Shown: positions 17,208-43,245 of the stretch, piece by piece | Layout of the letters: each line of letters begins with the position of its first letter | Position numbering within the stretch: position 1 is the first letter of the stretch | Origin: Mustelus asterias | Lineage: Eukaryota | Assembly (NCBI RefSeq): GCF_964213995.1 | Contig: NC_135807.1 | Location: forward strand, 96,906,001-96,970,000 | DNA: 64,000 nucleotides | Direction of reading: 5' to 3' | Program-made: the position numbers and the translations under genes | The notes under the pieces: generated by a model | Seen by the model: the letters and a program-made list of their open reading frames with translations, nothing else | The model's database searches: none | What the model was told of the DNA's origin: nothing

Positions 17208-18599
17208 CCGAGCAGAATAGATAAGGAGGAACAAGTGGATGTGATAGATTTAGATTTTCAAAAAGCTTTTTATGAAGTCTCACCCAAGAGTAAACAAAAT
17301 AGTGCTCATTGGATTAGGGGTAAGAAACTGGAATGGATTGAGAATGGGCTAATGACTAGAAAACAGAGTTAGAATAAATAGATTATTTTCAGGTTTGGAA
17401 GGCTAATGAGATACCGTTTGGATCAGTGCTGGGCTCCAGTTACTCACAACCTATATCAATAAATGTGGGAGTTAAATATAATACTTCCAAATTTGCAGAT
17501 GACACAAAACTAGGCGGGGGCATCAGTTGTGAGAAATAAGCAAAAATGCTTCAAAGTGATTTGGAGAGGCGAAGCGAGTAGGCAAAAAATTGGCAGATGG
17601 AATACAATGTGGAGAAATGTGAGGTTATCCACTTTGGTAGGAAAGAAAGAAATACAGAATATTTGTTAAATAGTGGAAGGCTGGCAAGTGTTCAACCTCA
17701 AAGGGACTTGGGGGATCTTGTTCTTGAGTCACGGAATCTAACTTGCAGGTACAGCAAGTAATTAGGAAGGCAAATGGTATGTTGGTCTTTATCGCAAAAG
17801 GATTTGAGTGTAGGAGTAAAGATGTCTTACTGTGATTATATAGAGCCTTAGTGAAACTGTACCTGGAGCATTGTGTGCTGTTTTGATCTCCTTGCCTCAG
17901 GAAAGATATATTTGCCATAGAGGGAGTGCAATGAAGGTTCATGAAATTAATTCCTGAGATGCTGGGTTTGTCCTATAAGGAAAGGTTAAATAAACTGAGC
18001 CTTTATTCTCTGGAGTTTAGAAGAATAAAAGGTGACCTCGTTTGAACATACAAAATTATTATGGGACTCGACAGGCTAGATGCAGGAAGGATGTTATCCT
18101 TGGCCAGTGGGTCTAGATATAATCTCAGAATAAGGAGCAGGCCATTTAGGACAGAGATGAAGAGGAATTCCTTCATTCAGGATTGGTGAATCTTTGGAAT
18201 TATCTTTTCCCTCGAGGGCTATTGAGGCTCAGTTGTTGGGTAAGTTCAAGACTTGAGATCGATAAATTTCTACATATTAAAAACATCAAGGGAAATGGGA
18301 AAATTCTGTTAAAGTAGAAGTTCAGCCATGATCTCATTGGAGGGTGAAGCAGGCTGAAAAGACTGAATGGCTTTCTCCTGCTTCTATTTGTTCAAATATT
18401 CTTGATATATGTTGGGTGGAGATGAACGAACCTGAGCCCCACAATCCGCTCTGCAAGAACCAAACCCTCTATTATTAATCAATGAGGAAAAACTGGAACA
18501 ACCAACCACACTATCCACACCCAAACCTGCTCCTCCCTGTAAGTGCAATGTCTCTCACATTGGTGTTAATGATTGCTGCTCATTAGAGAACTGAATCAA

Positions 18600-19592
18600 G
18601 GTGAGAAAAACAGAATGAGGAAAAGGGAGAAAAGGACTGGGGAAGAGAGAGATACAGATAGGGGAAGTCAGTGAGACTTGGGAGAGAGACAAACACTCTG
18701 GAGACACTATGGAAAGAGAGACATACACAGTGGAAGAGGAGAGAAAGACAGGAGAGAGAGGGAGACTGGGGAGAGAGAGAGAAAGACACTGGGAAAGAGA
18801 GAGGGACTGGGAAGTGAGAGAGACTGTGAGAAGGGCGAGAGACTGGGCAGAGACAGAAACCAGTGTGGGGGGGGGGGGGGGGAGAGAAAGAGACCGACGC
18901 ACATTTGGGGAGGAGAGAGTGAGTAGGGAAGAGAAGGTTGGGAAAGACAAAGTCTGAAGGTGTGTGTGAAAGAGAGGGAGAGAGGGAGACTAGGGGAAAA
19001 TGAGGGAGAGAAATTGGGGGGAAAGGGAGAGATGCTGGGGGTGAGAGAGAGAGAGAGGGAGACTGGAAGGAGAGAAGGAGAGACAGGGAGAGAGATTGGG
19101 GAGAGACAGGGAGAGAGATTGGGGAGAGACAGGAGAGAGGCTGAGTGAGAGGGAAAGATTACAGGGAGAAGGAGAATGAAGGCAAGTGTGAGAGCAATTG
19201 TACAGAGATAGCGAAGGACTGGGGGAGAGATGGAGAAAAGAGTGGGACAGAGTAGAAAAGAGACTGCAGATGGAGAGTGAGACGGGGAAGGGAGAGAGAG
19301 AGAGAGATGGGGAAAGTGAGTGAGAGACAGAGAGAGAGAGAGAAACTGGGAGAGAGAGGTGATGAGGGATTGGGAGATAGAAATTAAGAAAGATTGGGCG
19401 AAAGAGAAAGAGACCTGGAGAGATTGGAAGAAAGATGGGAGTGAGACTGGGGAGACAGATAGAGAGGCATGGGAAAGAGAAATAGACTGGGGAAGCAGCG
19501 AGAAAGAGAGACTGGGGAATGAGAGGAACTGGTTGTGGCAGAGAGATGTGGAAACTGGGGACAGAGAAAGGGAGAGTCTGAGAAAGAGAGAT
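18600..19592. repeat. GA-rich polypurine low-complexity tract (GAGACTGGG-like units)
   Basis: Strong purine bias on + strand with recurrent GAGAGACTGGG; generates spurious Ser/Leu and Glu/Arg ORFs. Confidence 0.9.
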
Positions 19593-20222
19593 GTCACAGG
19601 TTTGGAAGTTGCTGCAGCACATCTTGTAGATGGTACACACTGCAGCTTTGTGTGGCCATGACAGAGGGATTGAATGCTTATGGTGGTGGATAGGTTGCTT
19701 TATCATGGGCAATTCAAGCTTCTTGTGTGTTAGAGCTGCTGTCATCTAATCAGGTGGGAAATATTCAATCATGTTCCTGACTTGTGCCTTGTAACAGGTT
19801 TTGGAGAGAAGGTAGGAGAGATACTCTCTGCGGATTACCAAACCTCTGACCTGTTCTTGTACATACATTATTATATGTATGTACCTGTTCAATGAGAACT
19901 CCCAGGTTGTTGATGATGGGAAATACAGTGATGCAACTGCTGTTGAATGTCCTTAAATGGCAACAGGAGGTGATTAGATTCTCTCTTTTCGGAGAGGAAA
20001 TTGCTTGGCACTTGTGTGGTATAAATTTTATTTGTTAATTATCATCCCAAGCCTGAACATTGTCCAGATCTTGTTGCATATGGATACGGACCTTTTCAGT
20101 ATCTCAGGAATTGTGAATGGTGCTGAATATGGTGCAGTCATCAGCAAACATCCCCATTTCTGACCTTATGATGGAAGGAAGGTCATTGATGAAGCAGCTG
20201 AAGATGGTTGAGCTTAGGACAC
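19593..20222 (-). mobile_element. Old LINE fragment, truncated by the Gypsy 5' LTR
   Basis: AAVCTIYKMCCSNF on minus; GAAGGAAGGTCATTGATGAAGCAGCTG is the reverse of the RT FSCFINDLPS region, ending at the SVL segment next to 20223. Confidence 0.75.
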
Positions 20223-20530
20223 TGTGGTGAACCATAGATGGTTACCACTATGGGTACTGAACCATAGATGGTTATCACTATGGGTACTTGTACATATGTT
20301 ACTCTTGTTACTGTTGGGGTTAGGGTTGGGGTGTTCCACCTGTTGGCATTGTTCTGTGGTACACTCCGGTTGGCTCCGCCTTCCTATAAGAGTATAAAGG
20401 TCACTGCACTTCCTAGTGACCCTTTAGTCTGGGATTGTATTGTTAAGCAGTATGCTCTATTCTTGTTGCTAATAAAAGCCTTTATTTCCCGGGTACGATC
20501 CAGCCTCCCGAGTGAATTAATCGCGCATCA
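20223..20530 (+). repeat. 5' LTR with 30-bp tandem duplication near its start
   Basis: TGTGGTGAACC...CGCGCATCA; TATAAA and AATAAA inside; homologous to 26535-26811. Confidence 0.95.
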
Positions 20531-20567
20531 ATTTTATAAGCAACAATTTTTGTTTTGAAAAAAAAAC

Positions 20568-22142
20568 ATGGAGCAGATGTTAAAACCAGATCGCCTTACC
20601 TTAGATCCGTGTGTCGCTGGAGCATCGAACACTTTCGACCATTGGTTGAAGTGTTTCCAGGATTATAGCGACGCCTCAACAGCAGTCCAAAACGACGCCG
20701 ACAGATTGCGGGTCCTCCACACAAGGGTAAGCGACACTGTGTATGCAACAATCCGTGATTCCCAAGACTACAAAGAGGCCATCGAATTACTCAAGAAGCT
20801 GTACCATAAACCGCCAAACGAGATTCATGCTCGTCACCTACTAGCCACTCGACGGCGGCAGCCCGGCGAAACGACGGGACAGTACCTGCGCGAACTTCAA
20901 CAGCTAGCCAGAGCCTGCAATTGCAAGCCTGTGTCGGCTACTCAATACACTAACGATCTGATCCGAGATGCGTTCGTGGCGGGAATCGGCTCATCCTATA
21001 TTCGCCTGCGGCTGCTAGAGCAGGGTAACTTGGACCTAGCTAAGACGGTGGAATTGGCTGATGCGATGGAAACGGCCTCCAGTCTTGAAACTTACCCCAC
21101 CGACCACGTGGGAACATCGTGGCAAGTACAGCCACCGACTCAACTCTACCCAGCGGCTCCTAGGAACTGCGCAATCGTGCTTTCAACCTCGGACCTGGCG
21201 GCTGCGGCAGCTCCAGGAGGCCCACGGTGCTATTTCTGTGGATTGGCGAAGCACCCTCGCCAGAGATGTCCGGCCAGGACGGTATTTTGCTCCGCTTGTG
21301 GAAAGAAAGGGCACTATGCTAAAGTGTGCCGAGCGAAGCCCCCTTCGAAGCCAAGCAGTGCTGCGTGTGACTCCCCAGGATCCGTCTCCTCGTCTCCAGC
21401 TTCGTCAATGTCTTCAACCACGTGCGATTCACGGGCGCCGCCATTCCTGATGACGACGACGCAAGACACGTGCGACCTGCGGGTGCCGCCACTTTCAAAG
21501 CCATTGACCACGTGCGATCCATGGGCGCAGCCATCTTGGTCGACACCGGCTGCTGACGACCAGCAGGGGTCCTCATCATCGACCATCTCAGCTGCCTGCA
21601 GTTGCACTCGGGATCCAACAGTGGCGTCAATCATCCTGGACCAGGCCAAGCCTCACAGACTCGACAAGTCCATGATGGGCATAGAGGTAAATGGATGCCT
21701 GATACATTGTCTGTTTGACAGCGGGAGCACGGAGAGTTTCATTCATCCGGATACCGTGAAACGGTGCGCTCTCCGAGTACAAACTGTCAGGCAGACAATC
21801 TCTATGGCTTCGAGGTCCCGATCTGTTACCGTTCTTGGGAGCTGCGTGGTAACTCTAACGGTGCGCGGCACAGTTTATGAGAACTTCAGGCTCCTCGTGT
21901 TACCGCACCTTTGCGCTCCGGTACTCCTGGGACTAGACTTTATGGTCCACCTGAGGAGTGTGACCCTGCAGTACGATGGGCCACTCCCTCCACTTTCAGT
22001 GGGAGAACAGCAGCCTCCAAATTGCCCAGCGCGCTCTACGTGCAGACACTCAAAATTACCCCGCCTTCTTTATTTGAAAATCTCGTGCCAGGCTGCAAGC
22101 CCATCGCAACTAAGAGCAGGCGTTACAGCGCTGAGGATCTGA
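20568..22142 (+). CDS. gag: Gypsy gag-protease
   Basis: Paired zinc knuckles CYFCGLAKHPRQRC and CSACGKKGHYAKVC; aspartic protease LFDSGS; frameshift to pol near 22045. Confidence 0.9.
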   Translation: MEQMLKPDRLTLDPCVAGASNTFDHWLKCFQDYSDASTAVQNDADRLRVLHTRVSDTVYATIRDSQDYKEAIELLKKLYHKPPNEIHARHLLATRRRQPGETTGQYLRELQQLARACNCKPVSATQYTNDLIRDAFVAGIGSSYIRLRLLEQGNLDLAKTVELADAMETASSLETYPTDHVGTSWQVQPPTQLYPAAPRNCAIVLSTSDLAAAAAPGGPRCYFCGLAKHPRQRCPARTVFCSACGKKGHYAKVCRAKPPSKPSSAACDSPGSVSSSPASSMSSTTCDSRAPPFLMTTTQDTCDLRVPPLSKPLTTCDPWAQPSWSTPAADDQQGSSSSTISAACSCTRDPTVASIILDQAKPHRLDKSMMGIEVNGCLIHCLFDSGSTESFIHPDTVKRCALRVQTVRQTISMASRSRSVTVLGSCVVTLTVRGTVYENFRLLVLPHLCAPVLLGLDFMVHLRSVTLQYDGPLPPLSVGEQQPPNCPARSTCRHSKLPRLLYLKISCQAASPSQLRAGVTALRI

Positions 22143-22374
22143 TCTTCATTCGATCTGAGGTTCAGCGGCTCCTCAGGGAAGGGATCATTCAACCTAGCAC
22201 TAGCCCATGGAGAGCGCAAGTCGTGGTGGTTAAGACTGGAGACAAGCCACGGATGGTCATGGACTATAGTCAGACCATTAATAGGTACACGCAGCTGGAC
22301 GCGTACCCTCTCCCGCGCATATCTGACATGGTCAACCAGATTGCGCAGTACGAGGTGTTCTCCACCATCGACTT
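22045..22374 (+). pseudogene. pol: Gypsy RT N-terminal part, cut by CR1 insertion
   Basis: LREGIIQPSTSPWRAQVVVV, RMVMDYSQTIN, DAYPLPRI, FSTIDL; continues as DLKSAYHQ at 24321. Confidence 0.92.
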
Positions 22375-24320
22375 AAGTCCAGGCAACTGAAAACAGATGG
22401 AGCTCTGGAGGAATACAGAGAGAGTAGGAAAGAAGTCAAACGGGGAGTTAGAAGGGCAAAAAGAGGTCACGAGATGTTCTTGGCAGGCAGGATTAAGGAG
22501 AATCCTAAGGCATTCTATTCATACGTTAGGAACAAAAGAGTTGTCAGGGAGAAAATCGGACCTCTCAGGGACAAAGGAGGGGAATTATGCTTAGAACCCA
22601 AGGGAATAGGGGAGATCCTAAATGAATACTTTGCATCGGTATTCACGAAGGAGAGGGGCGTGTTAACCGGGAGTGTCTCGGAGGGAGGTGTTGACCCGTT
22701 AGAGAAAATCTCCATTACAAGAGAGGAAGTGTTAGGTTTTTGAGGGAACATTAAAACTGACAAAGCCCCCAGGGCCTGATGGCATCTATCCTCGACTGCT
22801 CAGGGAGACGAGAGATGAAATTGCTGGGTCTCTGACGGAAATCTTTGTCGCTTCTTTGGACACGGGTGAGGTCCCTGAGGATTGGAGGATAGCGAATGTG
22901 GTCCCGTTGTTTAAGAAGGGTAGCAGGGATAACCCAGGAAATTATAGGCCGGTGAGCTTGACGTTCGTGGTAGGGAAGTTGTTGGAGAGGATTCTTAGAG
23001 ACAGGATGTATGTGCATTTAGAACGGAATGATCTCATTAGTGACAGACAGCATGGTTTTGTAAGAGGGAGGTGGTGCCTTACAAATTTGGTGGAGTTTTT
23101 TGAGGAAGTGACAAAAACGGTTGATGAAGGAAGGGCCGTGGATGTCGTCTATATGGATTTCAGTAAGGCATTTGACAAAGTCCCACATGGCAGGTTGGTT
23201 AAGAAGGTTAAGGCTCATGGGATACAAGGAGAAGTGGCTAGATGGGTGGAGAACTGGCTTGGCCATAGGAGACAGAGGGTAGTGGTTGAAGGGTCTTTTT
23301 CCGGCTGGAGGTCTGTGACCAGTGGTGTTCCGCAGGGCTCTGTACTGGGACCTCTGCTATTTGTGATATATATAAATGATTTGGAAGAAGGTGTAACTGG
23401 TGTTATCAGCAAGTTTGCGGATGACACAAAGATGGCTGAAATTGCGGATAGCGAAGAGCATTGTCGGGCAATACAGCAGGATATAGATAGGCTGGAAAAT
23501 TGGGCGGAGAGGTGGCAGATGGAGTTTAATCCGGATAAATGCGAAGTGATGCATTTTGGAAGAAATAATGTAGGGAGGAGTTATACAATAAATGGCAGAG
23601 TCATCAGGTGTATAGAAACACAGAGGGACCTAGGTGTGCAAGTCCACAAATCCTTGAAGGTGGCAACACAGGTGGAGAAGGTGGTGAAGAAGGCATATGG
23701 TATGCTTGCCTTTATAGGACGGGGTATAGAGTATAAAAGCTGGAGTCTGATGATGCAGCTGTATAGAACGCTGGTTAGGCCACATTTGGAGTACTGCGTC
23801 CAGTTCTGGTCGCCGCACTACCAGAAGGACGTGGAGGCATTAGAGAGAGTGCAGAGAAGGTTTACCAGGATGTTGCCTGGTATGGAGGGTCTTAGCTATG
23901 AGGAGAGATTGGGTAGACTGGGGTTGTTCTCCTTGGAAAGACGGAGAATGAGGGGAGATCTAATAGAGGTGTACAAGATTATGAAGGGTATAGATAGGGT
24001 GAACAGTGGGAAGCTTTTTCCCAGGTCGGAGGTGACGATCACGAGGGGTCACGGGCTCAAGCTGAGAGGGGCAAAGTATAACTCAGACATCAGCGGGACT
24101 TTTTTACACAGAGGGTGGTGGGGGCCTGGAATGCACTGCCAAGTAGGGTGGTGGAGGCAGGCACGCTGACATCGTTTAAGACTTACCTGGATAGTCACAT
24201 GAGCAGCCTGGGAATGGAGGGATACAAACGATTGGTCTAGTTGGACCAAGGAGCGGCACAGGCTTGGAGGGCCGAAGGGCCTGTTTCCTGTGCTGTACTG
24301 TTCTTTGTTCTTTGTTCTTT
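22375..24320 (+). mobile_element. 5'-truncated CR1 LINE nested in the Gypsy RT, TSD GACTT
   Basis: ORF 22856..24169 CR1 RT; (GTTCTTT)n tail; GACTT at 22370-22374 and 24321-24325. Confidence 0.95.
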
Positions 24321-26327
24321 GACTTGAAGTCAGCCTACCACCAGCTCCCCATTCGCCCAGAGGACCGCAAATACACGGCCTTTGAGGCGGATGGCCGTCC
24401 CTACCACTTCTTAAGGATCCCTTTTGGCGTCACTAATGGGGTCTCGGTCTTCCAGCGTGAGATGGACCGAATGGTGGACCAAAACGGGCTACGGGCTACC
24501 TTCTCGTACCTGGACAACGTCACTATCTGCGGCCATGACCAGCAGGACCACGACGCCAACCTCCTGAAGTTTTTACGCACTGCGTCTCGCCTGAATCTGA
24601 CCTATAACAGGGAGAAGTGTGTATTCAGCAAGCACCGCCTAGCAATCCTCGGATACGTGGTGGAAAACGGGGTAATCGGCCCCGATCCAGACCGTATGCG
24701 CCCCCTCCTTGAACTTCCCCTACCCACTAGCATCAAAGCACTGAGAAGATGCTTAGGCTTCTTCTCGTATTACGCACAGTGGGTTCCCAATTATGCGGAC
24801 AAAGCCCGTCCGTTCATAAAGTCTACCTCTTTTCCCCTGGCAGCAGAGGCTCGCTTAGCCTTTGAAGGGATAAAAGCTGACATCGTGAAAGCCACGATGC
24901 ACGCTGTCGATGAGTCCATCCCCTTCCAGGTAGAGAGTGATGCATCTGATTTCGCCCTGGCCGCCACACTTAACCAGGCGGGCAGGCCCGTCGCCTTTTT
25001 CTCTCGCACCCTCCAAGGCCCTGAAATTCGGCACTCCTCTGTGGAAAAAGAGGCTCAGGCCATTGTGGAGGCCGTACGGCATTGGCGCCATTATTTGGCT
25101 GGAAAACGATTCACCCTGCTCACGGACCAGCGGTCCGTGGCATTCATGCTCAACAACACGTTAAGGGGTAAAATTAAGAATGATAAAATCTTGAGGTGGA
25201 GAATCGAACTCTCCACCTACAACTATGATATCATGTACCGTCCGCGGAAGCCCAATGAGCCCTCAGATGCCCTGTCGCGTGGAACATGTGCCAGTGTGCA
25301 GGAGGACCGGCTACAGGCCCTCCACAATGATCTCTGCCATCCGGGGATCACTCGGCTCTTCCATTTTGTAAAGACCCGGAATCTGCCCTACTCCATAGAG
25401 GATGTCAGGTCGATAACTCGAAGCTGCCAGGTATGTGCTGAATGCAAGCCGCACTTCTACCGACCTGACAGGGCACACCTCATTAAGGCCACTCACCCTT
25501 TTGAACGACTGAGTGTTGATTTCAAGGGCCCCCTTCCTTCGACAGATCGGAATGTGTGTTTCCTCAACATGGTTGACGAGTACTCCCGATTCCCTTTTGC
25601 CATTCCCTGTTCTGACATGTCCGCTGCCACGGTCATCAAAGCCCTGCGGAGTCTTTTTACCCTGTTCGGCTACCCCAGTTATATCCACAGTGATAGGGGT
25701 TCGTCGTTTATGAGCGACGACTTGAGGCAATACCTGCTCTCTAAAGGAATTGCCTCAAGTAGGACTACGAGTTACAATCCTTGGGGTAACGGGCAGGTCG
25801 AAAGAGAAAACGCTACAGTCTGGAAGGCTGTCTTACTGGCGTTGAGGTCTAGGGGTCTTCCAGTCTCCCGTTGGCAAGAGGTACTTTCTGATGCGCTCCA
25901 TTCAATCTGGTCCCTCCTGTGTACGGCAACCAATGCTACCCCACATGAGCGGATGTTTACCTTCCCTAGGAAGTCTTCCTCTGGGACCTCACTGCCGTCT
26001 TGGTTGACATACTCAGGACCTGTCCTCCTGCGGCGGCATGTAAGGACCCGCAAGTCCGACCCTTTGGTTGAACAGGTCCATCTCCTCCACGCCAACCCTC
26101 AATATGCCTATGTAGCATATCCTGACGGGCGAGAGGACACGGTCTCTATCCGAGATCTGGCGCCTGCAGGGGACCTGGAAACCCCCGTCGCTCCCGCACC
26201 CCTGGTTAGTGTTCCTTTGCCCATTCTCTCCCCTCCTGACACGGCGCGGGCAGTATCGGGACCTCCGCTTAATCCTCTTACTCCCGTGTACAGCTTGCCT
26301 GAGTCCAGGAGATTGTCGCCACCTTAA
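24321..26327 (+). CDS. pol: Gypsy pol remainder: RT (YLDN), RNase H, integrase
   Basis: DLKSAYHQ, PFGVTNG, YLDNV, ESDASD, EKEA, TDQR, HHCC (H..CHPG...CQVC), SVDFKGP, HSDRG, GNGQVERE; open frame throughout. Confidence 0.93.
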   Translation, partial: DLKSAYHQLPIRPEDRKYTAFEADGRPYHFLRIPFGVTNGVSVFQREMDRMVDQNGLRATFSYLDNVTICGHDQQDHDANLLKFLRTASRLNLTYNREKCVFSKHRLAILGYVVENGVIGPDPDRMRPLLELPLPTSIKALRRCLGFFSYYAQWVPNYADKARPFIKSTSFPLAAEARLAFEGIKADIVKATMHAVDESIPFQVESDASDFALAATLNQAGRPVAFFSRTLQGPEIRHSSVEKEAQAIVEAVRHWRHYLAGKRFTLLTDQRSVAFMLNNTLRGKIKNDKILRWRIELSTYNYDIMYRPRKPNEPSDALSRGTCASVQEDRLQALHNDLCHPGITRLFHFVKTRNLPYSIEDVRSITRSCQVCAECKPHFYRPDRAHLIKATHPFERLSVDFKGPLPSTDRNVCFLNMVDEYSRFPFAIPCSDMSAATVIKALRSLFTLFGYPSYIHSDRGSSFMSDDLRQYLLSKGIASSRTTSYNPWGNGQVERENATVWKAVLLALRSRGLPVSRWQEVLSDALHSIWSLLCTATNATPHERMFTFPRKSSSGTSLPSWLTYSGPVLLRRHVRTRKSDPLVEQVHLLHANPQYAYVAYPDGREDTVSIRDLAPAGDLETPVAPAPLVSVPLPILSPPDTARAVSGPPLNPLTPVYSLPESRRLSPP

Positions 26328-26534
26328 GGTCCACCCGTGCGTGAGGAACTGGAGGAGTCACGGGACACCACCTTGGAGAGAGGGACACCACGGTCACCAG
26401 AACCGGCACTACCGACAGTGCTGTGGAGGTTGCAGAGACGGTGCGGACCTCCGATACGACTGAACTTGTGAATATATGGACAGTTCGTACGGTTTTTTTG
26501 CCTCACCAGCCTTTGTTTTTAAAGGAGGGGTGAA

Positions 26535-26811
26535 TGTGGTGAACCATAGATGGTTACCACTATGGGTACTTGTACATATGTTACTCTTGTTCCTGTTGGG
26601 GTTAGGGTTGGGGTGTTCCACCTGTTAGCATTGTTCTGTGGTACACTCCGGTTGGCTCCGCCTTCCTATAGGAGTATAAAGGTCACTGCACTTCCTAGTG
26701 AGTCTTTAGTCTGGGATTGTATTGTTAAGCAGTATGCTCTATTCTTGTTGCGAATAAAAGCCTTTATTACCGGGTACGATCGAGCCTCCCGAGTGAATTA
26801 ATCGCGCATCA
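26535..26811 (+). repeat. 3' LTR
   Basis: TGTGGTGAACC...CGCGCATCA preceded by the PPT. Confidence 0.95.
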
Positions 26812-27469
26812 CCATGTTTAAAAAATATTCAGAGCAATAACAAAGCAGATATAGAAATGTAAAATGTGAGAGATGTTTGTGGAACCATGGCTATGATTAA
26901 CAAGGTATCTGATGTCAATGACTCAATTACAGCACACAAAAACAAATGAAATGATCTCCATTGGAATATAATTGGGGTATAATCTTACACCCCAGCCAAT
27001 CAAACTTTCTCCTTAATCTATTTAATTAAAGTCTCTAAAACCAACTGATATTATTAATGAAGATTTATTCGACACTCGGGTTCTGTGAACAAAGCTTCAA
27101 GCTGTGAATATATATTTGGAGGAGGCAAAAGGGCCTGAGCCCTAAGCCTCACGATTCCTGACTGTCCCAAACTGTCAAATTCCAGTAAGCTGCAGTAACG
27201 TTGGCACCAGTAATACTGGACTTCCATATTGAAGTATATAAGACCAGTTCCAACACGTTTTACTGGTACCTTTCATTCCGAAGATTTTCTGGGGTTTCCA
27301 ACAACTCTGCATTAACCAACCCCTTAATTATTAAAGAATGAGGAAAGACTGGAACTGCCAACTATACCATTCACACCCAAATCTGCTCCAGTCTGTTCGT
27401 CTCTGTAAGAGCAAAGTCTCGGCCTCCAACATTGTCGCTAATGTTTGCTGCTCGGTAAAGAACTGAATC

Positions 27470-28380
27470 AAAGTAAGAGAAACAGAAGGAGAGAAAGAAA
27501 GATGTACCGGGGAGAGAGAGGCTGGGAAGAGGAAGAGTCAGTGAGGGAAGGATGGGAGATAAAGAGACTTGGGGAAAGAGAAAAAGGCTGGGCAGAGAGA
27601 GAGACCCACAGTGCGGAGGGAGAGAGAGACTGGAAAGAGAGTTTGTGGGCAAGTGAAAGATGGGAAAGAGAGAGACTGGACATGAAAGGGAGAAAGGGAC
27701 TGGGTGGAGACAGGGAGAGATGGAGTGGAAAAAGAGAGAGAGAGACTGAGAGTGCAGCTTGAGGCCAGACAGAAAGAGACTGGGAGAGGGACAGAGACAA
27801 GAGGACCACAGAGAGTGAGAGGAAAAGACTGAAAAGAGATAGCGAAATAGAGACGGGGAGAGAGAGAGAGGCTGGAGCGCAAGACAGAGAGCGAAGGACA
27901 GACTGGGACAGAAGGACTAGGGTGGGAAGGAGAAAACTGGCAAACATGATAGCAACTGGGCAGAAATAGAGAGAGGGAGAGATGGACAGAAAGGGAGAGA
28001 GGCAAGCAGAGTGAGACCGGAGCAAGTTGCAGAGACTGCCGATGGAGCAAGTGAAACGGGGGAAAGAAGGAGAAAGACTGGCGTAGAGAGATTGGGGGTA
28101 GAGAGAGAGGGCGAGGGACTGCAAATTAGGGAGTAGGAGAAATATGAAGAGAGAAACATGGGAGATATTGGCAGAGAGAGAGGAATGAGATTGGGAAGAG
28201 AGATAAATGGGGGAGACAGAGAGAGACTGAAGGAGAGACGTAGACTGAGGAAGCAGAGAGAAAATGTCACTGGGATAGAGAAAGAGAGGGATTGCTTTGG
28301 ACAGAGAGAGATAGTGAGAGAGGGACAGAGAGGTAGAGAGAGATTGGGGTCAGATGGGAGAGAGAGGGACAGGGAAAAGA
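27470..28380. repeat. GA-rich tract in the array unit (also about 32000-32910, 36530-37440, 41050-41960)
   Basis: Polypurine GAGA/GACTGG repeats. Confidence 0.9.
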
Positions 28381-28794
28381 GGTTGCCCGTTTGGAAATTG
28401 AGGCAGTGCATTCCAAACTCCCTCCAGACTGTTCCAGCAAGTGGAAACAGGAGCTCCACTCTAAATACTGGTTTGATCCAGTGGAATACTTGAGGCTGAT
28501 GGAGTATGTGGCCTCCTCATTCATTCCTGTCCTCGTCATTGTATGGGATGTGGAGCCCAGGTTTGCCATCTGCAGTACCAATATCTCCTTATGTATATAT
28601 CCAATTCCCATTTGTAAATTACAATTCACTCCAATTCTATTGCAAAGTATTGCATTCGAAATCATAACTTAATCTGTTCAAAATAACTCATCGCCCCCTT
28701 GTATCTACATCCTATGGTTACCATCTGTGCTGCCAGTAGAAACAGTTTCTTCTTGATTATCACAATCCTTCATGATTTTTCAACATCTCTATGA

Positions 28795-28960
28795 GGGAGA
28801 AATGGTGGCCTATTGGCAATGTCACTGGACTAGGAATCCAGAGGCTCAGACTGTTAATCTGAGCAGATGGGCTCAGACCCCACCTTTATCCTACATTTAT
28901 CTGGTCTGGCCCACATGTGATTACAGACCCACAAATGTTAACTGGAACATCCTGTCGACG
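28795..28960 (+). mobile_element. Old, internally deleted tRNA-headed SINE remnant (in each array unit)
   Basis: GGTGGCCTATTGGCAATGTCACTGGACTAGGAATCCAGAG tRNA-like head and CTGGTCTGGCCCACATGTGATTACAGACCCAC core-like segment. Confidence 0.5.
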
Positions 28961-29259
28961 TGAGGAGCTGAAAAATTCCAGCCAGTGTCATTATCTTGAT
29001 TAGTTTTTCTATGTACTCCAGTTCTTGGTTTTTATTCCCAACCATTGTCAGTTCACAAGAAAAAGGTACACACAAAACAATGAATTAATGAAGATTTTAA
29101 GAAGTTCACCCAAGAGACATGGGTGAAGACTTGCCATGTGTCTAACTTTACAACCTTTCCAAATTTTTATGAGCAATTTGTTTTGCCCATCGTATCTTTT
29201 TCAATTTTAATGTTGAGCATCAATGTGTCCGAGAAGGGAGTTTTCATTATGTTGGAACA

Positions 29260-29680
29260 TTGGCATTTAACCAATGACAGGTAGTTAAGTAGGGGCAGCC
29301 TTGGCATGTTGCCAATGACAGGGGCCTGACCTTTGTGCCTGTTTGATGCGTGCACTCGACGGGCCTGCCAGCCAACCAGAAAAGCAGACAGGCCACATGT
29401 GACCCAATTTATGTTTTGGTTGGATGGACTTCTGACTATGGTGTGCGCCCACTAACTGAAATATTGTGCGAGTGCGCGATGATGTTTGGAAGAGTGCTCT
29501 ACATTTTTTCACATACTTTCACCCACCCAAGCAACAAAAACTTCTGGCCAAAGTGTTGTCAGTATGTGGGAGCTTTGGTATGTAGCCAATAACAGGCAGA
29601 TTAATATGTGAGTGCATTGGCAAGTAGCCAATGACAGTGAATTTTGGTCTTTGGAAACATAGGTTTGTATCCAACGACAG
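29260..29680 (+). promoter_or_regulatory. Cluster of five TTGGC-N5-GCCAA-TGACAG composite motifs (NFI palindrome + CCAAT + MEIS/TGIF-type site); repeated in all four array units
   Basis: Sites start at 29260, 29301, 29575, 29617, 29660; two are perfect NFI consensus; function not shown. Confidence 0.5.
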
Positions 29681-29975
29681 AGAGTCTGCTGGCTGATTGA
29701 CATTCACAGTCAGAGAGAGAGTTTGATATGTTCCTGCAGAAACTGGCCTATTTGCAGGGGCCTGCCTCAGTTACTGTTTCCTTTTCAGTGTTGTAAACTT
29801 CCAGCTCGTTTTCTCTCAGCACACAGATTGACAGGCAGACAACAATGACAGGGCAGATACTGTTAGGCAGACAGGCAGTCAGGCAGCTCTGTAACGTAGC
29901 TATTATCCCCCGTCTTTGTACATTGCCAGAGGAAACTGGAATACGTTAGTCCATCTCGGCAATTACACACAGGAC

Positions 29976-31067
29976 AGGCGATTTTGCACCCACATTCAGC
30001 GTCAGCAAGAACGGCTATGCAGGGACAAAATACTGTGAGATTTGAGAATCAAGATTCTTACCGGTGTGATCTCGTTTCCCGATTTTTGCCACCCCTCACT
30101 GGTGATGTATCAAGGTTCACGGCCAAAAAGGGTGGGAACCTCATTTTAATAAATCTCACTAAATTTAAATAGGGTTCAAGCGGGTCCTCAAGATATGTTC
30201 CCCCCTCACTAAATATTCATACCTTGCTGACGTGATGACATGTCTGCGAGGTTCACAACAGCTATTCAAGAACGTGAGGCAGTCGAGGGGAACCCAAAGA
30301 GGGAGGGGGAGAGCCCCCCTCCAGTAGTGCGATGGTGGGGGGGGGTGGTGGTGGAGGATTGGAGAGGGGGAATGTGTCCCCTGATATTGCAGTTGTTGGG
30401 GGGTGGAGTGGGGTCACCCCAATGTTTCTGGGGCTGCGAGAGTGGTTCTCCATGTCCTCGGAGGAGTGGTGTGGAGGGAGGGTGCGTGGAAGTTTATTTT
30501 TAGTGTGCTGATTGGGGCACCCTTTAAAGATGGTGCCCTGATCTCTGTGGAGACGGCCTTGCCGGCTCTTATCAGGCGCCACCTCACCGCAGTGAAGGCA
30601 TAAACCATGGTCCCGGATCTATTTTGTCAGCGTGCCAGAAAGTCTGGTCAGAAAATTTGGCAGTGCATCTGGAGAGATACACACCGGTTTTCAGTCAGAG
30701 CCTGACACTCTGATAAATAGGGGTGGCACAGTGGCACAGTGGTTAGCACTGCTGCCTCACAGCACCAGGGAGCCGGGTTCGATTCCCGGCTTGGGTCACT
30801 GTCTGTGTGGAGTCTGCATATTTTCCCTGTGTCTGCATGGGTTTCCTCCGGGTGCTCTGGTTTCCTCCCACAGTCCAAAGAATGCGGGTTAGGTTGATTG
30901 GCCATGCTAAATTGCCCCTTAGTGTCGGGGGGTTAGTAGGGTAAATAAGTACAGTTGTAGGGATGGGGCCTGGGTGGGATTGTGGTCGGTGCAGACTCGA
31001 TGGGCCGAATGGCCTCCTTCTGTACTATAGGGATCCTCTGATTCTAAATCATGGGAAAATTCCTCCC
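29976..31067. mobile_element. Non-autonomous Harbinger-type element (MITE-like) in the array unit, with nested SINE
   Basis: Termini GGCGATTTT... and ...GGGAAAATTCCTCCC resemble the Harbinger ends at 47013-47027 and 57106-57118; subterminal CACACCGGTTTTC is shared with 46977-46989. Confidence 0.6.
30719..31044 (+). mobile_element. HE1-like SINE with TSD TAAAT (copies at about 35251-35576 and 39770-40095)
   Basis: A box TGGCACAGTGG, B box GGTTCGATTCC, CR1-type tail; TAAAT at 30714-30718 and 31045-31049. Confidence 0.92.
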
Positions 31068-34000
31068 TCGGGCTTTGAGGTGGGATTGTCGTTATGTCTC
31101 TTTGTCTTTACCAGAGATTGTGATCAGTCTTTGGATGCTTATAGAAATATTTTCTCTCGAAACACAATGTTCCTTCGGGAAACTCCCTGTAGCCATGCCA
31201 GTCAGGGGCGAGCTTACATTCTCAGCCATCTTTGGTGTCTGTGCCCATCTTTAAGATACAACATCATACCGGCCAATTGCAATGTGCGCAACAAGCTCAT
31301 TTACCTTGTTCAGGGACCAGGGACCTGGAATTTGTTTCCATGTTTAAAAAATATTCAGAGCAATAACAAAGCAGATATAGAAATGTAAAATGTGAGAGAT
31401 GTTTGTGGAACCATGGCTATGATTAACAAGGTATCTGATGTCAATGACTCAATTACAGCACACAAAAACAAATGAAATGATCTCCATTGGAATATAATTG
31501 GGGTATAATCTTACACCCCAGCCAATCGAACTTTCTCCTTAATCTATTTAATTACAGTCTCTAAAACCAACTGATATTATTAATCAAGATTTATTCCACA
31601 CTCGGGTTCTGTGAACAAAGCTTCAAGCTGTGAATATATATTTGGAGGAGGCAAAAGGGCCTGAGCCCGAAGCCTCACGATTCCTGACTGTCCCAAACTG
31701 TCAAATTCCAGTAAGCTGCAGTAACGTTGGCACCAGTAATACTGGACTTCCATATTGAAGTATATAAGACCAGTTCCAACACGTTTTACTGGTACCTTTC
31801 ATTCCGAAGATTTTCTGGGGTTTCCGACAACTCTGCATTAACCAACCCCTTAATTATTAAAGAATGAGGAAAGACTGGAACTGCCAACTATACCATTCAC
31901 ATCCAAATCTGCTCCAGTCTGTTCGTCTCTGTAAGAGCAAAGTCTCGGCCTCCAACATTGTCGCTAATGTTTGCTGCTCGGGAAAGAACTGAATCAAAGT
32001 AAGAGAAACAGAAGGAGAGAAAGAAAGATGTACCGGGGAGAGGGAGGCTGGGAAGAGGGAGAGTCAGGGAGGGAAGGATGGGAGAGAAAGAGACTTGGGG
32101 AAAGAGAAAAAGGCTGGGCAGAGAGAGAGACCCACAGTGCGGAGGGAGAGAGAGACTGGAAAGAGAGTTTGTGGGCAAGTGAAAGATGGGAAAGAGAGAG
32201 ACTGGACATGAAAGGGAGAAAGGGACTGGGTGGAGAGAGGGAGAGATGGAGTGGAAAAAGAGAGATAGAGAGAGAGACTGAGAGTGCAGCTTGAGGCCAG
32301 ACAGAAAGAGACTGGGAGAGGGACAGAGACAAGAGGACCACAGAGAGTGAGAGGAAAAGACTGAAAAGAGATAGCGAAATAGAGACGGGGAGAGAGAGAG
32401 AGGCTGGAGCGCAAAACAGAGAGCGAAGGACAGACTGGGACAGAAGGACTAGGGCGGGAAGGAGAAAACTGGCAAACATGATAGCAACTGGGCAGAAATA
32501 GAGAGAGGGAGAGATGGACAGAAAGGGAGAGAGGCAAGCAGAGTGAGACCGGAGCAAGTTGCAGAGACTGCCGAGGGAGCAAGTGAAACGGGGGAAAGAA
32601 GGAGAAAGACTGGCGTAGAGAGATTGGGGGTAGAGAGAGAGGGCGAGGGACTGCAAATTAGGGAGTAGGAGAAATATGAAGAGAGAAACATGGGAGATAT
32701 TGGCAGAGAGAGAGGAATGAGATTGGGAAGAGAGATAAATGGGGGAGACAGAGAGAGACTGAAGGAGAGACGTAGACTGAGGAAGCAGAGAGAAAATGTC
32801 ACTGGGATAGAGAAAGAGAGGGATTGCTTTGGACAGAGAGAGATAGTGAGAGAGGGACAGAGAGGTAGAGAGAGATTGGGGTCAGATGGGAGAGAGAGGG
32901 ACAGGGAAAAGAGGTTGCCCGTTTGGAAATTGAGGCAGTGCATTCCAAACTCCCTCCAGACTGTTCCAGCAAGTGGAAACAGGAGCTCCACTCTAAATAC
33001 TGGTTTGATCCAGTGGAATACTTGAGGCTGATGGAGTATGTGGCCTCCTCATTCATTCCTGTCCTCGTCATTGTATGGGATGTGGAGCCCAGGTTTGCCA
33101 TCTGCAGTACCAATATCTCCTTATGTATATATCCAATTCCCATTTGTAAATTACAATTCACTCCAATTCTATTGCAAAGTATTGCATTCGAAATCATAAC
33201 TTAATCTGTTCAAAATAACTCATCGCCCCCTTGTATCTACATCCTATGGTTACCATCTGTGCTGCCAGTAGAAACAGTTTCTTCTTGATTATCACAATCC
33301 TTCATGATTTTTCAACATCTCTATGAGGGAGAAATGGTGGCCTATTGGCAATGTCACTGGACTAGGAATCCAGAGGCTCAGACTGTTAATCTGAGCAGAT
33401 GGGCTCAGACCCCACCTTTATCCTACATTTATCTGGTCTGGCCCACATGTGATTACAGACCCACAAATGTTAACTGGAACATCCTGTCGACGTGAGGAGC
33501 TGAAAAATTCCAGCCAGTGTCATTATCTTGATTAGTTTTTCTATGTACTCCAGTTCTTGGTTTTTATTCCCAACCATTGTCAGTTCACAAGAAAAAGGTA
33601 CACACAAAACAATGAATTAATGAAGATTTTAAGAAGTTCACCCAAGAGACATGGGTGAAGACTTGCCATGTGTCTAACTTTACAACCTTTCCAAATTTTT
33701 ATGAGCAATTTGTTTTGCCCATCGTATCTTTTTCAATTTTAATGTTGAGCATCAATGTGTCCGAGAAGGGAGTTTTCATTATGTTGGAACATTGGCATTT
33801 AACCAATGACAGGTAGTTAAGTAGGGGCAGCCTTGGCATGTTGCCAATGACAGGGGCCTGACCTTTGTGCCTGTTTGATGCGTGCACTCGACGGGCCTGC
33901 CAGCCAACCAGAAAAGCAGACAGGCCACATGTGACCCAATTTATGTTTTGGTTGGATGGACTTCTGACTATGGTGTGCGCCCACTAACTGAAATATTGTG

Positions 34001-37000
34001 CGAGTGCGCGATGATGTTTGGAAGAGTGCTCTACATTTTTTCACATACTTTCACCCACCCAAGCAACAAAAACTTCTGGCCAAAGTGTTGTCAGTATGTG
34101 GGAGCTTTGGTATGTAGCCAATAACAGGCAGATTAATATGTGAGTGCATTGGCAAGTAGCCAATGACAGTGAATTTTGGTCTTTGGAAACATAGGTTTGT
34201 ATCCAACGACAGAGAGTCTGCTGGCTGATTGACATTCACAGTCAGAGAGAGAGTTTGATATGTTCCTGCAGAAACTGGCCTATTTGCAGGGGCCTGCCTC
34301 AGTTACTGTTTCCTTTTCAGTGTTGTAAACTTCCAGCTCGTTTTCTCTCAGCACACAGATTGACAGGCAGACAACAATGACAGGGCAGATACTGTTAGGC
34401 AGACAGGCAGTCAGGCAGCTCTGTAACGTAGCTATTATCCCCCGTCTTTGTACATTGCCAGAGGAAACTGGAATACGTTAGTCCATCTCGGCAATTACAC
34501 ACAGGACAGGCGATTTTGCACCCACATTCAGCGTCAGCAAGAACGGCTATGCAGGGACAAAATACTGTGAGATTTGAGAATCAAGATTCTTACCGGTGTG
34601 ATCTCGTTTCCCGATTTTTGCCACCCCTCACTGGTGATGTATCAAGGTTCACGGCCAAAAAGGGTGGGAACCTCATTTTAATAAATCTCACTAAATTTAA
34701 ATAGGGTTCAAGCGGGTCCTCAAGATATGTTCCCCCCTCACTAAATATTCATACCTTGCTGACGTGATGACATGTCTGCGAGGTTCACAACAGCTATTCA
34801 AGAACGTGAGGCAGTCGAGGGGAACCCAAAGAGGGAGGGGGAGAGCCCCCCTCCAGTAGTGCGATGGTGGGGGGGGGTGGTGGTGGAGGATTGGAGAGGG
34901 GGAATGTGTCCCCTGATATTGCAGTTGTTGGGGGGTGGAGTGGGGTCACCCCAATGTTTCTGGGGCTGCGAGAGTGGTTCTCCATGTCCTCGGAGGAGTG
35001 GTGTGGAGGGAGGGTGCGTGGAAGTTTATTTTTAGTGTGCTGATTGGGGCACCCTTTAAAGATGGTGCCCTGATCTCTGTGGAGACGGCCTTGCCGGCTC
35101 TTATCAGGCGCCACCTCACCGCAGTGAAGGCATAAACCATGGTCCCGGATCTATTTTGTCAGCGTGCCAGAAAGTCTGGTCAGAAAATTTGGCAGTGCAT
35201 CTGGAGAGATACACACCGGTTTTCAGTCAGAGCCTGACACTCTGATAAATAGGGGTGGCACAGTGGCACAGTGGTTAGCACTGCTGCCTCACAGCACCAG
35301 GGAGCCGGGTTCGATTCCCGGCTTGGGTCACTGTCTGTGTGGAGTCTGCATATTTTCCCTGTGTCTGCATGGGTTTCCTCCGGGTGCTCTGGTTTCCTCC
35401 CACAGTCCAAAGAATGCGGGTTAGGTTGATTGGCCATGCTAAATTGCCCCTTAGTGTCGGGGGGTTAGTAGGGTAAATAAGTACAGTTGTAGGGATGGGG
35501 CCTGGGTGGGATTGTGGTCGGTGCAGACTCGATGGGCCGAATGGCCTCCTTCTGTACTATAGGGATCCTCTGATTCTAAATCATGGGAAAATTCCTCCCT
35601 CGGGCTTTGAGGTGGGATTGTCGTTATGTCTCTTTGTCTTTACCAGAGATTGTGATCAGTCTTTGGATGCTTATAGAAATATTTTCTCTCGAAACACAAT
35701 GTTCCTTCGGGAAACTCCCTGTAGCCATGCCAGTCAGGGGCGAGCTTACATTCTCAGCCATCTTTGGTGTCTGTGCCCATCTTTAAGATACAACATCATA
35801 CCGGCCAATTGCAATGTGCGCAACAAGCTCATTTACCTTGTTCAGGGACCAGGGACCTGGAATTTGTTTCCATGTTTAAAAAATATTCAGAGCAATAACA
35901 AAGCAGATATAGAAATGTAAAATGTGAGAGATGTTTGTGGAACCATGGCTATGATTAACAAGGTATCTGATGTCAATGACTCAATTACAGCACACAAAAA
36001 CAAATGAAATGATCTCCATTGGAATATAATTGGGGTATAATCTTACACCCCAGCCAATCGAACTTTCTCCTTAATCTATTTAATTACAGTCTCTAAAACC
36101 AACTGATATTATTAATCAAGATTTATTCCACACTCGGGTTCTGTGAACAAAGCTTCAAGCTGTGAATATATATTTGGAGGAGGCAAAAGGGCCTGAGCCC
36201 GAAGCCTCACGATTCCTGACTGTCCCAAACTGTCAAATTCCAGTAAGCTGCAGTAACGTTGGCACCAGTAATACTGGACTTCCATATTGAAGTATATAAG
36301 ACCAGTTCCAACACGTTTTACTGGTACCTTTCATTCCGAAGATTTTCTGGGGTTTCCGACAACTCTGCATTAACCAACCCCTTAATTATTAAAGAATGAG
36401 GAAAGACTGGAACTGCCAACTATACCATTCACATCCAAATCTGCTCCAGTCTGTTCGTCTCTGTAAGAGCAAAGTCTCGGCCTCCAACATTGTCGCTAAT
36501 GTTTGCTGCTCGGGAAAGAACTGAATCAAAGTAAGAGAAACAGAAGGAGAGAAAGAAAGATGTACCGGGGAGAGGGAGGCTGGGAAGAGGGAGAGTCAGG
36601 GAGGGAAGGATGGGAGAGAAAGAGACTTGGGGAAAGAGAAAAAGGCTGGGCAGAGAGAGAGACCCACAGTGCGGAGGGAGAGAGAGACTGGAAAGAGAGT
36701 TTGTGGGCAAGTGAAAGATGGGAAAGAGAGAGACTGGACATGAAAGGGAGAAAGGGACTGGGTGGAGAGAGGGAGAGATGGAGTGGAAAAAGAGAGATAG
36801 AGAGAGAGACTGAGAGTGCAGCTTGAGGCCAGACAGAAAGAGACTGGGAGAGGGACAGAGACAAGAGGACCACAGAGAGTGAGAGGAAAAGACTGAAAAG
36901 AGATAGCGAAATAGAGACGGGGAGAGAGAGAGAGGCTGGAGCGCAAAACAGAGAGCGAAGGACAGACTGGGACAGAAGGACTAGGGCGGGAAGGAGAAAA

Positions 37001-40000
37001 CTGGCAAACATGATAGCAACTGGGCAGAAATAGAGAGAGGGAGAGATGGACAGAAAGGGAGAGAGGCAAGCAGAGTGAGACCGGAGCAAGTTGCAGAGAC
37101 TGCCGAGGGAGCAAGTGAAACGGGGGAAAGAAGGAGAAAGACTGGCGTAGAGAGATTGGGGGTAGAGAGAGAGGGCGAGGGACTGCAAATTAGGGAGTAG
37201 GAGAAATATGAAGAGAGAAACATGGGAGATATTGGCAGAGAGAGAGGAATGAGATTGGGAAGAGAGATAAATGGGGGAGACAGAGAGAGACTGAAGGAGA
37301 GACGTAGACTGAGGAAGCAGAGAGAAAATGTCACTGGGATAGAGAAAGAGAGGGATTGCTTTGGACAGAGAGAGATAGTGAGAGAGGGACAGAGAGGTAG
37401 AGAGAGATTGGGGTCAGATGGGAGAGAGAGGGACAGGGAAAAGAGGTTGCCCGTTTGGAAATTGAGGCAGTGCATTCCAAACTCCCTCCAGACTGTTCCA
37501 GCAAGTGGAAACAGGAGCTCCACTCTAAATACTGGTTTGATCCAGTGGAATACTTGAGGCTGATGGAGTATGTGGCCTCCTCATTCATTCCTGTCCTCGT
37601 CATTGTATGGGATGTGGAGCCCAGGTTTGCCATCTGCAGTACCAATATCTCCTTATGTATATATCCAATTCCCATTTGTAAATTACAATTCACTCCAATT
37701 CTATTGCAAAGTATTGCATTCGAAATCATAACTTAATCTGTTCAAAATAACTCATCGCCCCCTTGTATCTACATCCTATGGTTACCATCTGTGCTGCCAG
37801 TAGAAACAGTTTCTTCTTGATTATCACAATCCTTCATGATTTTTCAACATCTCTATGAGGGAGAAATGGTGGCCTATTGGCAATGTCACTGGACTAGGAA
37901 TCCAGAGGCTCAGACTGTTAATCTGAGCAGATGGGCTCAGATCCCACCTTTATCCTACATTTATCTGGTCTGGCCCACATGTGATTACAGACCCACAAAT
38001 GTTAACTGGAACATCCTGTCGACGTGAGGAGCTGAAAAATTCCAGCCAGTGTCATTATCTTGATTAGTTTTTCTATGTACTCCAGTTCTTGGTTTTTATT
38101 CCCAACCATTGTCAGTTCACAAGAAAAAGGTACACACAAAACAATGAATTAATGAAGATTTTAAGAAGTTCACCCAAGAGACATGGGTGAAGACTTGCCA
38201 TGTGTCTAACTTTACAACCTTTCCAAATTTTTATGAGCAATTTGTTTTGCCCATCGTATCTTTTTCAATTTTAATGTTGAGCATCAATGTGTCCGAGAAG
38301 GGAGTTTTCATTATGTTGGAACATTGGCATTTAACCAATGACAGGTAGTTAAGTAGGGGCAGCCTTGGCATGTTGCCAATGACAGGGGCCTGACCTTTGT
38401 GCCTGTTTGATGCGTGCACTCGACGGGCCTGCCAGCCAACCAGAAAAGCAGACAGGCCACATGTGACCCAATTTATGTTTTGGTTGGATGGACTTCTGAC
38501 TATGGTGTGCGCCCACTAACTGAAATATTGTGCGAGTGCGCGATGATGTTTGGAAGAGTGCTCTACATTTTTTCACATACTTTCACCCACCCAAGCAACA
38601 AAAACTTCTGGCCAAAGTGTTGTCAGTATGTGGGAGCATTGGTATGTAGCCAATAACAGGCAGATTAATATGTGAGTGCATTGGCAAGTAGCCAATGACA
38701 GTGAATTTTGGTCTTTGGAAACATAGGTTTGTATCCAACGACAGAGAGTCTGCTGGCTGATTGACATTCACAGTCAGAGAGAGAGTTTGATATGTTCCTG
38801 CAGAAACTGGCCTATTTGCAGGGGCCTGCCTCAGTTACTGTTTCCTTTTCAGTGTTGTAAACTTCCAGCTCGTTTTCTCTCAGCACACAGATTGACAGGC
38901 AGACAACAATGACAGGGCAGATACTGTTAGGCAGACAGGCAGTCAGGCAGCTCTGTAACGTAGCTATTATCCCCCGTCTTTGTACATTGCCAGAGGAAAC
39001 TGGAATACGTTAGTCCATCTCGGCAATTACACACAGGACAGGCGATTTTGCACCCACATTCAGCGTCAGCAAGAACGGCTGTGCAGGGACAAAATACTGT
39101 GAGATTTGAGAATCAAGATTCTTACCGGTGAGATCTCGTTTCCCGATTTTTGCCACCCCTCACTGGTGATGTATCAAGGTTCACGGCCAAAAAGGGTGGG
39201 AACCTCATTTTAATAAATCTCGCTAAATTTAAATAGGGTTCAAGCTATGTTCCCCCCTCACTAAATATTCATACCTTGCTGACGTGATGACATGTCTGCG
39301 AGGTTCACAACAGCTATTCAAGAACGTGAGGCAGTTGAGGGGAACCCAAAGAGGGAGGGGGAGAGCCCCCCCCCCAGTAGTGCGATGGTGGGGGGGTGGG
39401 GGTGGAGGATTGGAGAGGGGGAATGTGTCCCCTGATATTGCAGTTGTTGGGGGGTGGAGTGGGGTCACCCCAATATTTCTGGGGCTGCGAGAGTGGTTCT
39501 CCATGTCCTCGGAGGAGTGGTGTGGAGGGAGGGTGCGTGGAAGTTTATTTTTAGTGTGCTGATTGGGGCACCCTTTAAAGATGGTGCCCTGATCTCTGTG
39601 GAGACGGCCTTGCCGGCTCTTATCAGGCGCCACCTCACCGCAGTGAAGGCATAAACCATGGTCCCGGATCTATTTTGTCAGCGTGCCAGAAAGTCTGGTC
39701 AGAAAATTTGGCAGTGCATCTGGAGAGATACACACCGGTTTTCAGTCAGAGCCTGACACTCTGATAAATAGGGGTGGCACAGTGGCACAGTGGTTAGCAC
39801 TGCTGCCTCACAGCACCAGGGAGCCGGGTTCGATTCCCGGCTTGGGTCACTGTCTGTGTGGAGTCTGCATATTTTCCCTGTGTCTGCATGGGTTTCCTCC
39901 GGGTGCTCTGGTTTCCTCCCACAGTCCAAAGAATGCGGGTTAGGTTGATTGGCCATGCTAAATTGCCCCTTAGTGTCGGGGGGTTAGTAGGGTAAATAAG

Positions 40001-42833: not shown

Positions 42834-43245
42834 AAGAACATGAGAACATAAGAAATAGGAGCAGGAGTAGGCCATCTAGCCCCTCGAGACTGCCCCGCCA
42901 TTCAATAAGATCATGGCTGATCTGAAGTGGATCAGTTCCACTTACCCACCTGATCCCCATAACCCCTAATTCCCCTACTGATCAGGAATCCATCTATCCG
43001 TGATTTAAACATATTCAACGAGGTAGCCTCCACCACTTCAGTGGGCAGAGAATTCCAGAGATTCACCACCCTCTGAGAGAAGAAGTTCCTCCTCAACTCT
43101 GTCCTAAACTGACCCCCCTTTATTTTGAGGCTGTGCCCTCTAGTTCTAGTTTCCTTTCTAAGTGGAAAGAATCTCTCCACCTCTACCCTATCCAGTCCCT
43201 TCATTATCTCATAGGTCTCTATAAGTTCCCCCCTCAGCCTTCTAA
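42834..43245 (-). mobile_element. Short CR1 3' end inserted only in array copy 4, TSD ATTAT
   Basis: Minus ORF 42932..43204 nearly identical to the 8041..8496 C-terminus; empty site GAGTTTTCATTATGTTGG in copies 1-3; ATTAT at 42829-42833 and 43246-43250. Confidence 0.97.

Follow-up and report, generated by a model that had tools for sequence, protein, structure and literature searches.

Minisatellites (VNTRs) that have degenerated under concerted evolution are the closest kind of system to the motif array described here, and the palindrome TTGGC-N5-GCCAA, parts of which recur in the array, is the NFI consensus. As described in the available part of PMC11853044, the U3 enhancer of ERV9/LTR12 carries 5-17 repeats of ~41 nt with CCAAT boxes bound by NF-Y, for which excerpts of PMC11802806 give the consensus RRCCAATSR. 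Elements for TALE (PBX/PREP) proteins and NF-Y act in zebrafish genome activation (PMC6023610; PMC11802806); the accessible text of these papers gives TGATTGACAG as the TALE decamer (PMC6023610) and TALE-10bp-CCAAT as the geometry of the combined elements (PMC11802806).

The window, a stretch of 64,000 nucleotides of Mustelus asterias DNA, contained a decayed tandem repeat of 41-43 bp at 29239-29680 on the plus strand, with five units split by a MITE-like insert. All five 21-mers reported by the initial annotation were recovered, as the plus-strand cores of units 1 (29260-29280), 2 (29301-29321), 3 (29575-29595), 4 (29617-29637), and 5 (29660-29680), with 1, 0, 2, 0, and 4 mismatches, respectively, to TTGGC-N5-GCCAATGACAG. 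Enrichment over shuffled sequence, which had been proposed as a check, was beyond chance: four matches with at most two mismatches occurred within 3.7 kb, against a shuffle mean of 0.01, and none of 200 shuffles reached four. The words of the proposed NFI, CCAAT, and TGACAG composite were present, but complete words occurred in part of the units only. In each of copies 1-3 of the duplication that contains the array, the full NFI word was found in two of five units (2 and 4), RRCCAATSR in two of five (1 and 4, unit 1 with an imperfect NFI half), and TGACAG in three of five. CCAAT was present in four of the five units and missing from the degenerate unit 5. Because TGACAG shares bases with the flank of CCAAT, what looks like a 'composite' amounts largely to a single extended CCAAT word within a palindrome.

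The motif cluster is present four times because positions 26812-44322 form a tandem array of a 4.5-kb unit. This agreed with the fourfold multiplication and about 20 sites claimed earlier, as the cluster recurred at 33792, 38324, and 43260/43288, giving ~20 units. Copy 1 (26812-31337) begins where a Gypsy LTR ends; copy 2 (31338-35869) has 16 mismatches to copy 1 and an identical cluster at 33792-34212; copy 3 (35870-40388) has a cluster with one change at 38324-38744; and copy 4 (40389-44322), which is partial, has its cluster at 43260-43708, all on the plus strand. In copy 4, a LINE-like insert (42834-43246) lies just before unit 1, a 14-bp sequence is triplicated inside unit 1, and the TGACAG of unit 4 is changed.

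An origin from a decayed 42-bp repeat, as proposed in the initial annotation, was confirmed in that the five units belong to one 41-43 bp tandem repeat. The reported spacings of 41, 42, and 43 bp were correct, but the true series is 41, 274, 42, 43, with a wide gap of 274 bp from unit 2 to unit 3. This gap consists of a 229-bp MITE-like insert, a probable 3-bp target duplication, and 42 bp. When insert and probable target duplication were taken out, the units followed each other head to tail with periods of 41, 42, 42, and 43 bp; as removal restores the 42-bp period, the original array consisted of five contiguous units. The insert (29322-29550, no strand assigned) is an internally deleted MITE-like element, with inverted ends complementary at 20 of 34 bases, flanks that match at two of three bases at this locus as a probable 3-bp target duplication, which the relatives did not confirm, and dispersed relatives at 76-88% identity. 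Matching left ends were found in L029 and matching right ends in five of seven relatives. Terminal inverted repeats and dispersed copies, expected of a non-autonomous DNA transposon (MITE), were thus both present.

Spacers described as more variable than the motifs were indeed so over whole units, with mismatches at 11/105 core positions versus 31/110 spacer positions (permutation P ~0.011-0.016, corrected for choice of the best window); over clearly homologous columns (11/105 versus 13/60) the difference was not significant (Fisher 0.066, permutation 0.155). A protein-coding repeat was rejected, because periods of 41 and 43 break the reading frame and four overlapping ORFs had no Pfam match. 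A structured RNA was likewise rejected, with no Rfam match within the window.

Like degenerate minisatellites, the array consists of head-to-tail units of 41-43 bp with a constant period once the insert is disregarded. As in minisatellites under concerted evolution, unit number varies between species and units are more alike within the locus than across paralogous loci. Unlike a typical minisatellite, the array has only 5-6 units, is old and split by a MITE, and is too decayed for Tandem Repeats Finder, which did not list it. As in the local-duplication binding sites treated in the accessible part of Nourmohammad and Lassig (2011, PMC3188502), the array has adjacent site-like words that share an origin and lie within ~50 bp; unlike the validated fly regulatory modules considered there, the array is known from sequence and its sites are conserved no more than background. 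The available description of ERV9/LTR12 (PMC11853044) matches the array in unit length and repeated CCAAT, but the array is not an LTR family: it is a single locus with a parent-gene counterpart, and two of its four CCAAT-bearing units have lost this word in a related species. CCAAT and TGACAG occur together in the array as in the zebrafish TALE/NF-Y elements, whereas none of the units of copies 1-3 contains the decamer TGA(T/G)TGACAG (TGATTGACAG), and the 10 bp that separate the two words in the TALE-10bp-CCAAT geometry are missing, as TGACAG and CCAAT overlap.

An intact CCDC127 paralog has its first coding exon downstream of the array. To the left of the window are SDHA, on the minus strand, and a CCDC127-like parent gene, on the plus strand (L054; P0003). 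Searches of the window with tiles of the parent upstream region (nhmmer) gave collinear matches at 28967-29044 (E 0.009) and 29201-29318 (E 2e-6), and stronger ones further on, at 47040-48189. The plus-strand stretch 28967-29318, which covers units 1 and 2, is thus collinear with the upstream/intron-1 region of parent CCDC127 (L053:5835-6030), and the array flank reached a pairwise local score of 70 against the parent, versus at most 48 in 42 control scorings. A weak homologue of the promoter-side region of parent SDHA/CCDC127, with a putative non-coding exon 1 that would end at a GT donor near 27473, was found at 27337-27519 on the plus strand; one tile search gave it an E of 0.0025 and a profile of two sequences an E of 0.18, and its pairwise scores were not above null. 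The collinear matches indicated that the 4.5-kb unit is likely a copy of the 5' end of the paralog, with the array in the equivalent of intron 1. With exon 1 putatively assigned from this homology, the motif array likely sits in intron 1 of the CCDC127 paralog.

The parent counterpart consists of two units with a period of 37, upstream of the parent's first coding exon, and CCAAT, ATTGG, TGACAG, and NFI words were all absent from these two units. A 1-bp deletion common to the parent's second unit and array unit 2 indicated that two units predate the gene duplication. Core identity was 18/21 (u1-u2) and 16/21 (a1-a2) within loci and 12/21 across loci, whereas identity of the 12-base spacer was 6/12 within loci, 9/12 for u1-a1, and 6/11 for u2-a2. 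This likeness of cores within loci, with only two units available in the parent, suggests that in one or both lineages the core has evolved in concert. Since core-over-spacer likeness also occurs in the motif-free parent copy, the argument from variable spacers is weakened.

A second species (organism B) was compared by means of one 1380-base contig from one sample (runs X5 and X8 represent the same sample). Contigs of organism C yielded no long piece across the array. Differences over the region numbered 40 in 830 bases and 19 in 394, a background of 59/1224 (4.8%). Four of the 105 core bases differed, at 29270 (unit 1), 29313 (unit 2), 29586 (unit 3), and 29661 (unit 5), versus 5.1 expected from background; all four fell within the 80 'fixed' positions, for which 3.9 were expected. 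The changes at 29313 and 29586 destroy CCAAT in units 2 and 3. Based on these four substitutions, 80% constraint was disfavoured (P 0.019 for 105 core bases and 0.008 for the 80 fixed positions), while 50% constraint was compatible with the counts (P 0.25 and 0.13), the power of one contig and four substitutions being low. The count excluded the difference at the 29605 junction and some four inside a doubled unit of organism B. This doubled unit is a sixth one: the 43 bp of unit 4 (29605-29647) occur twice, as a joint in two runs of the sample shows, so that unit number is two in the parent gene, five here, and six in organism B. Differences at 29331, 29424, 29574, and 29649, none of them in the core, are common to organism B and copy 4 and thus represent changes in copies 1-3 or 1-2. 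Two of the four core differences depart from the unit consensus in organism B only, as B-specific losses, and the lineage studied here may have kept its sites while B alone lost two. Equal conservation of spacers and motifs had been named as evidence against an enhancer, and between the two species it was found (4/105 in the core versus 59/1224 in the background), at low power. Because the motifs differ in the second species as often as the DNA around them, a neutral repeat is likelier than a new enhancer.

These observations indicated that the cluster is probably a decayed 42-bp minisatellite under concerted evolution, without strong constraint. Its transcription-factor-like words then likely go back to a single unit sequence present in five copies, not to selection for binding sites. 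Such a history would start from the two-unit repeat found in the parent gene at the collinear position, both units being older than the gene duplication. In the paralog, cores may have been homogenised between neighbouring units, by conversion or unequal exchange, while units were added, and the core that became fixed would merely happen to read ATTGGC-N5-GCCAATGACAG; the two parent units would have been homogenised to a different, motif-free core. Subsequent changes would comprise those visible in the present sequence, namely the MITE-like element between units 2 and 3, the LTR-like fragment abutting unit 5, the difference in unit number (5 versus 6), and the very recent 4.5-kb tandem duplications to four copies. 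The motifs would now drift at approximately the background rate, so that NF-Y or NFI, if they bind at all, would do so incidentally. Tolerance by copy 4 of its LINE-like insert, 14-bp triplication, and TGACAG change was counted in favour of a neutral repeat. Counted against it were the whole-unit core excess (P 0.011-0.016), the best unit (4) being intact and doubled in organism B, and the intact, old neighbouring paralog (dN/dS 0.45), which needs some regulatory sequence. As a neutral repeat, the locus would have little importance beyond showing how one tandemly copied unit can imitate a phased homotypic cluster, and that core-over-spacer likeness can arise without motifs.

The functional homotypic NFI/NF-Y/MEIS enhancer proposed in the initial annotation was not supported by the sequence comparisons, in which core differences in organism B were close to background and the parent showed core likeness without motifs. 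An unlikely alternative to the neutral repeat is that the array acts on the CCDC127 paralog as an enhancer or alternative promoter, homotypic for NF-Y/NFI, redundant, and possibly weak. Local duplication would have assembled it once the gene copy had left the bidirectional SDHA promoter; individual sites would turn over, and unit number (5 versus 6, and fourfold here) would tune expression. Each of copies 1-3 does carry RRCCAATSR and the NFI word in full twice each, and their palindromic core is missing from the parent counterpart, but the parent shows the same core homogenisation without motifs, and the array has neither a TALE decamer nor the TALE-10bp-CCAAT geometry. In organism B the best unit occurs twice, with CCAAT gone from units 2 and 3, and a core excess was seen over whole units (P ~0.013); however, conservation between species showed no excess, at the low power of one contig from one other species. 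The intact paralog 4.5 kb downstream of copy 4 is consistent with a regulatory role, whereas the MITE splits the array and no CpG island occurs in the array's part of the window. Precedents are given by the accessible parts of PMC3188502, which documents that binding sites can arise by local duplication, and of PMC11853044, in which LTR12 uses 41-nt CCAAT repeats. Decidedly unlikely is the more specific scheme in which an inert two-unit intronic repeat became the paralog's own 42-bp NF-Y/NFI enhancer array, away from the SDHA promoter, with turnover, unit number, and the fresh fourfold duplication setting expression. If functional, the locus would make the birth of an enhancer through local duplication unusually easy to read, the derived state lying 50 kb from the ancestral one, which the neighbouring parent gene would still show in its motif-free form.

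A further proposal, that the units come from a transposable element, as its subterminal or U3 enhancer repeats, LTR12-like and shaped during activity of that element, is very improbable and already largely refuted. A dispersed LTR-like repeat fragment (29685-29925, no strand assigned; 40 scored of 173 candidates) does begin 4 bases past unit 5 and continues at ~31065-31266. Its family, LTR-like by inspection, appears to span ~1.2 kb with TG..CA-like ends, but the 21-mer was found in none of six aligned members. The words GATTGACAG and CAATGACAG near 29826-29851, previously taken as parts of the cluster, belong to the GACA-rich part of this repeat and not to array units. In the 3.68-Gb genome, the search for the 21-mer that had been suggested yielded at least eight exact occurrences, seven in the window and one elsewhere, with ~2 expected by chance; this placed the pattern mostly, but not exclusively, in the window. 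All 14 matches to a relaxed motif pattern lay in the window, these genome searches giving lower bounds. Array DNA matched outside sequences only in its MITE part, and the flank with units 1-2 is collinear with the parent gene. Although the region is a patchwork of mobile elements, these results argue against a mobile-element origin of the units.

Among these elements, a Gypsy-type LTR retrotransposon (20228-26811, plus strand) with protease, RT, RNase H, and integrase, LTRs that are 96% alike, and a LINE inside abuts the duplication array. Its 5' LTR starts with a 30-bp doubling, no target duplication is visible around it, and the 4.5-kb array starts at its 3' end. A DDE_Tnp_4 (Harbinger-type) transposase fragment and related pieces occur at 49400-50550, 45300-46150, and 54100-55550, in or near the 9-kb intron of the paralog.

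Paired CCAATRACAG words at 39-46 bp spacing gave 28 matches genome-wide, seven of them in the window, versus 20 for a reversed control, which indicated that such pairs are ordinary repeat background; the 21 outside pairs look like unrelated short repeats. The only exact 21-mer outside the window (L020:1499-2180; G000:C71:12.465 Mb) is followed after ~175 bp by a TCR-like V segment that carries a 23-spacer recombination signal; three CCAAT/ATTGG words cluster at this site. A link to TCR promoters was rejected, as other V-like segments in 200 kb showed no counterpart (eight tblastn matches, with the unit profile scoring L020 only) and ~2 chance matches were expected. An immunoglobulin-heavy-like V segment, typed by eye and with a 12-spacer-like signal, was observed among the TCR-like V segments (L096-L098, G000:C71 ~12.521 Mb).

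The copies of the 4.5-kb tandem duplication are ~99% identical, and copies 1-3 differ by 10-26 substitutions plus indels. In run X1, whose sample may be the source of the assembly, the collapsed contig had a depth of 60 versus ~17 for most other contigs listed, which, as a rough guide, fits about four copies. Contigs of two other individuals over the duplication had depths of 7-9 versus ~3-10, so that the fourfold array may be polymorphic between individuals. An assembly artefact of a single locus is hardly credible, since the likeness of the copies (~99% or more) and the depth of only 7-9 in the two other individuals, which would agree with it, are set against the substitutions and indels between copies, the insert private to copy 4, and the depth in run X1.

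The CCDC127 paralog begins 4.5 kb downstream of copy 4. Its coding exons run from 48170-48296 (first) to 57331-57947 (last) on the plus strand and encode 247 aa, identical to P0001; its intron measures 9 kb, versus ~330 bp in the parent. P0001 is a CCDC127/SPRIZ paralog with 59% identity to parent P0003 (dN/dS 0.45) that lacks ~18 residues in the apparent coiled coil and differs in its membrane anchor. A five-sequence tree places it with the Cetorhinus protein P0002 (support 0.999), and the two have indels in common, which suggests an old shark duplication. In the available part of PMC13666014, CCDC127/SPRIZ shows no distinct paralogous clades in chordates, and the SPRIZ rod, conserved in length, sets intermembrane width; on that basis, the shark paralog would be a natural short-rod variant, and it may merit more attention than the motifs. 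A protein atlas gave no informative match for the paralog. Further tandem duplicates of the CCDC127 gene are a decayed last-exon remnant with stops (13390-14457, plus strand) and, at 18446-19600, an older copy of the exon-1-like and purine-rich stretch, with ~69% identity to the 4.5-kb unit.

To the right of the window lies a DUF5614/DUF1308 gene, which we take to be C7orf25. Directly upstream of its coding exon is a G-rich minisatellite of ~20 kb (L056:8400 to L058:9100; ~G000:C7:96.978-96.999 Mb), followed near L058:9350-9490 by two remnants that are presumably U2-snRNA-like. A CpG-rich stretch in L058, considered as a promoter, proved to be a G-rich minisatellite instead. Synteny with what we assume to be the human gene neighbourhood, PSMA2/MRPL32/HECW, was rejected, because the family matches lay on other contigs or far off. 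A weak L32p match and a proteasome-subunit match occur together at G000:C2:140.62-140.65 Mb, while the C7orf25-like gene at C7:97.0 Mb lies beside CCDC127/SDHA and a gene that we take to be amphiphysin-like, an arrangement on C2 and C7 that presumably differs from the human order.
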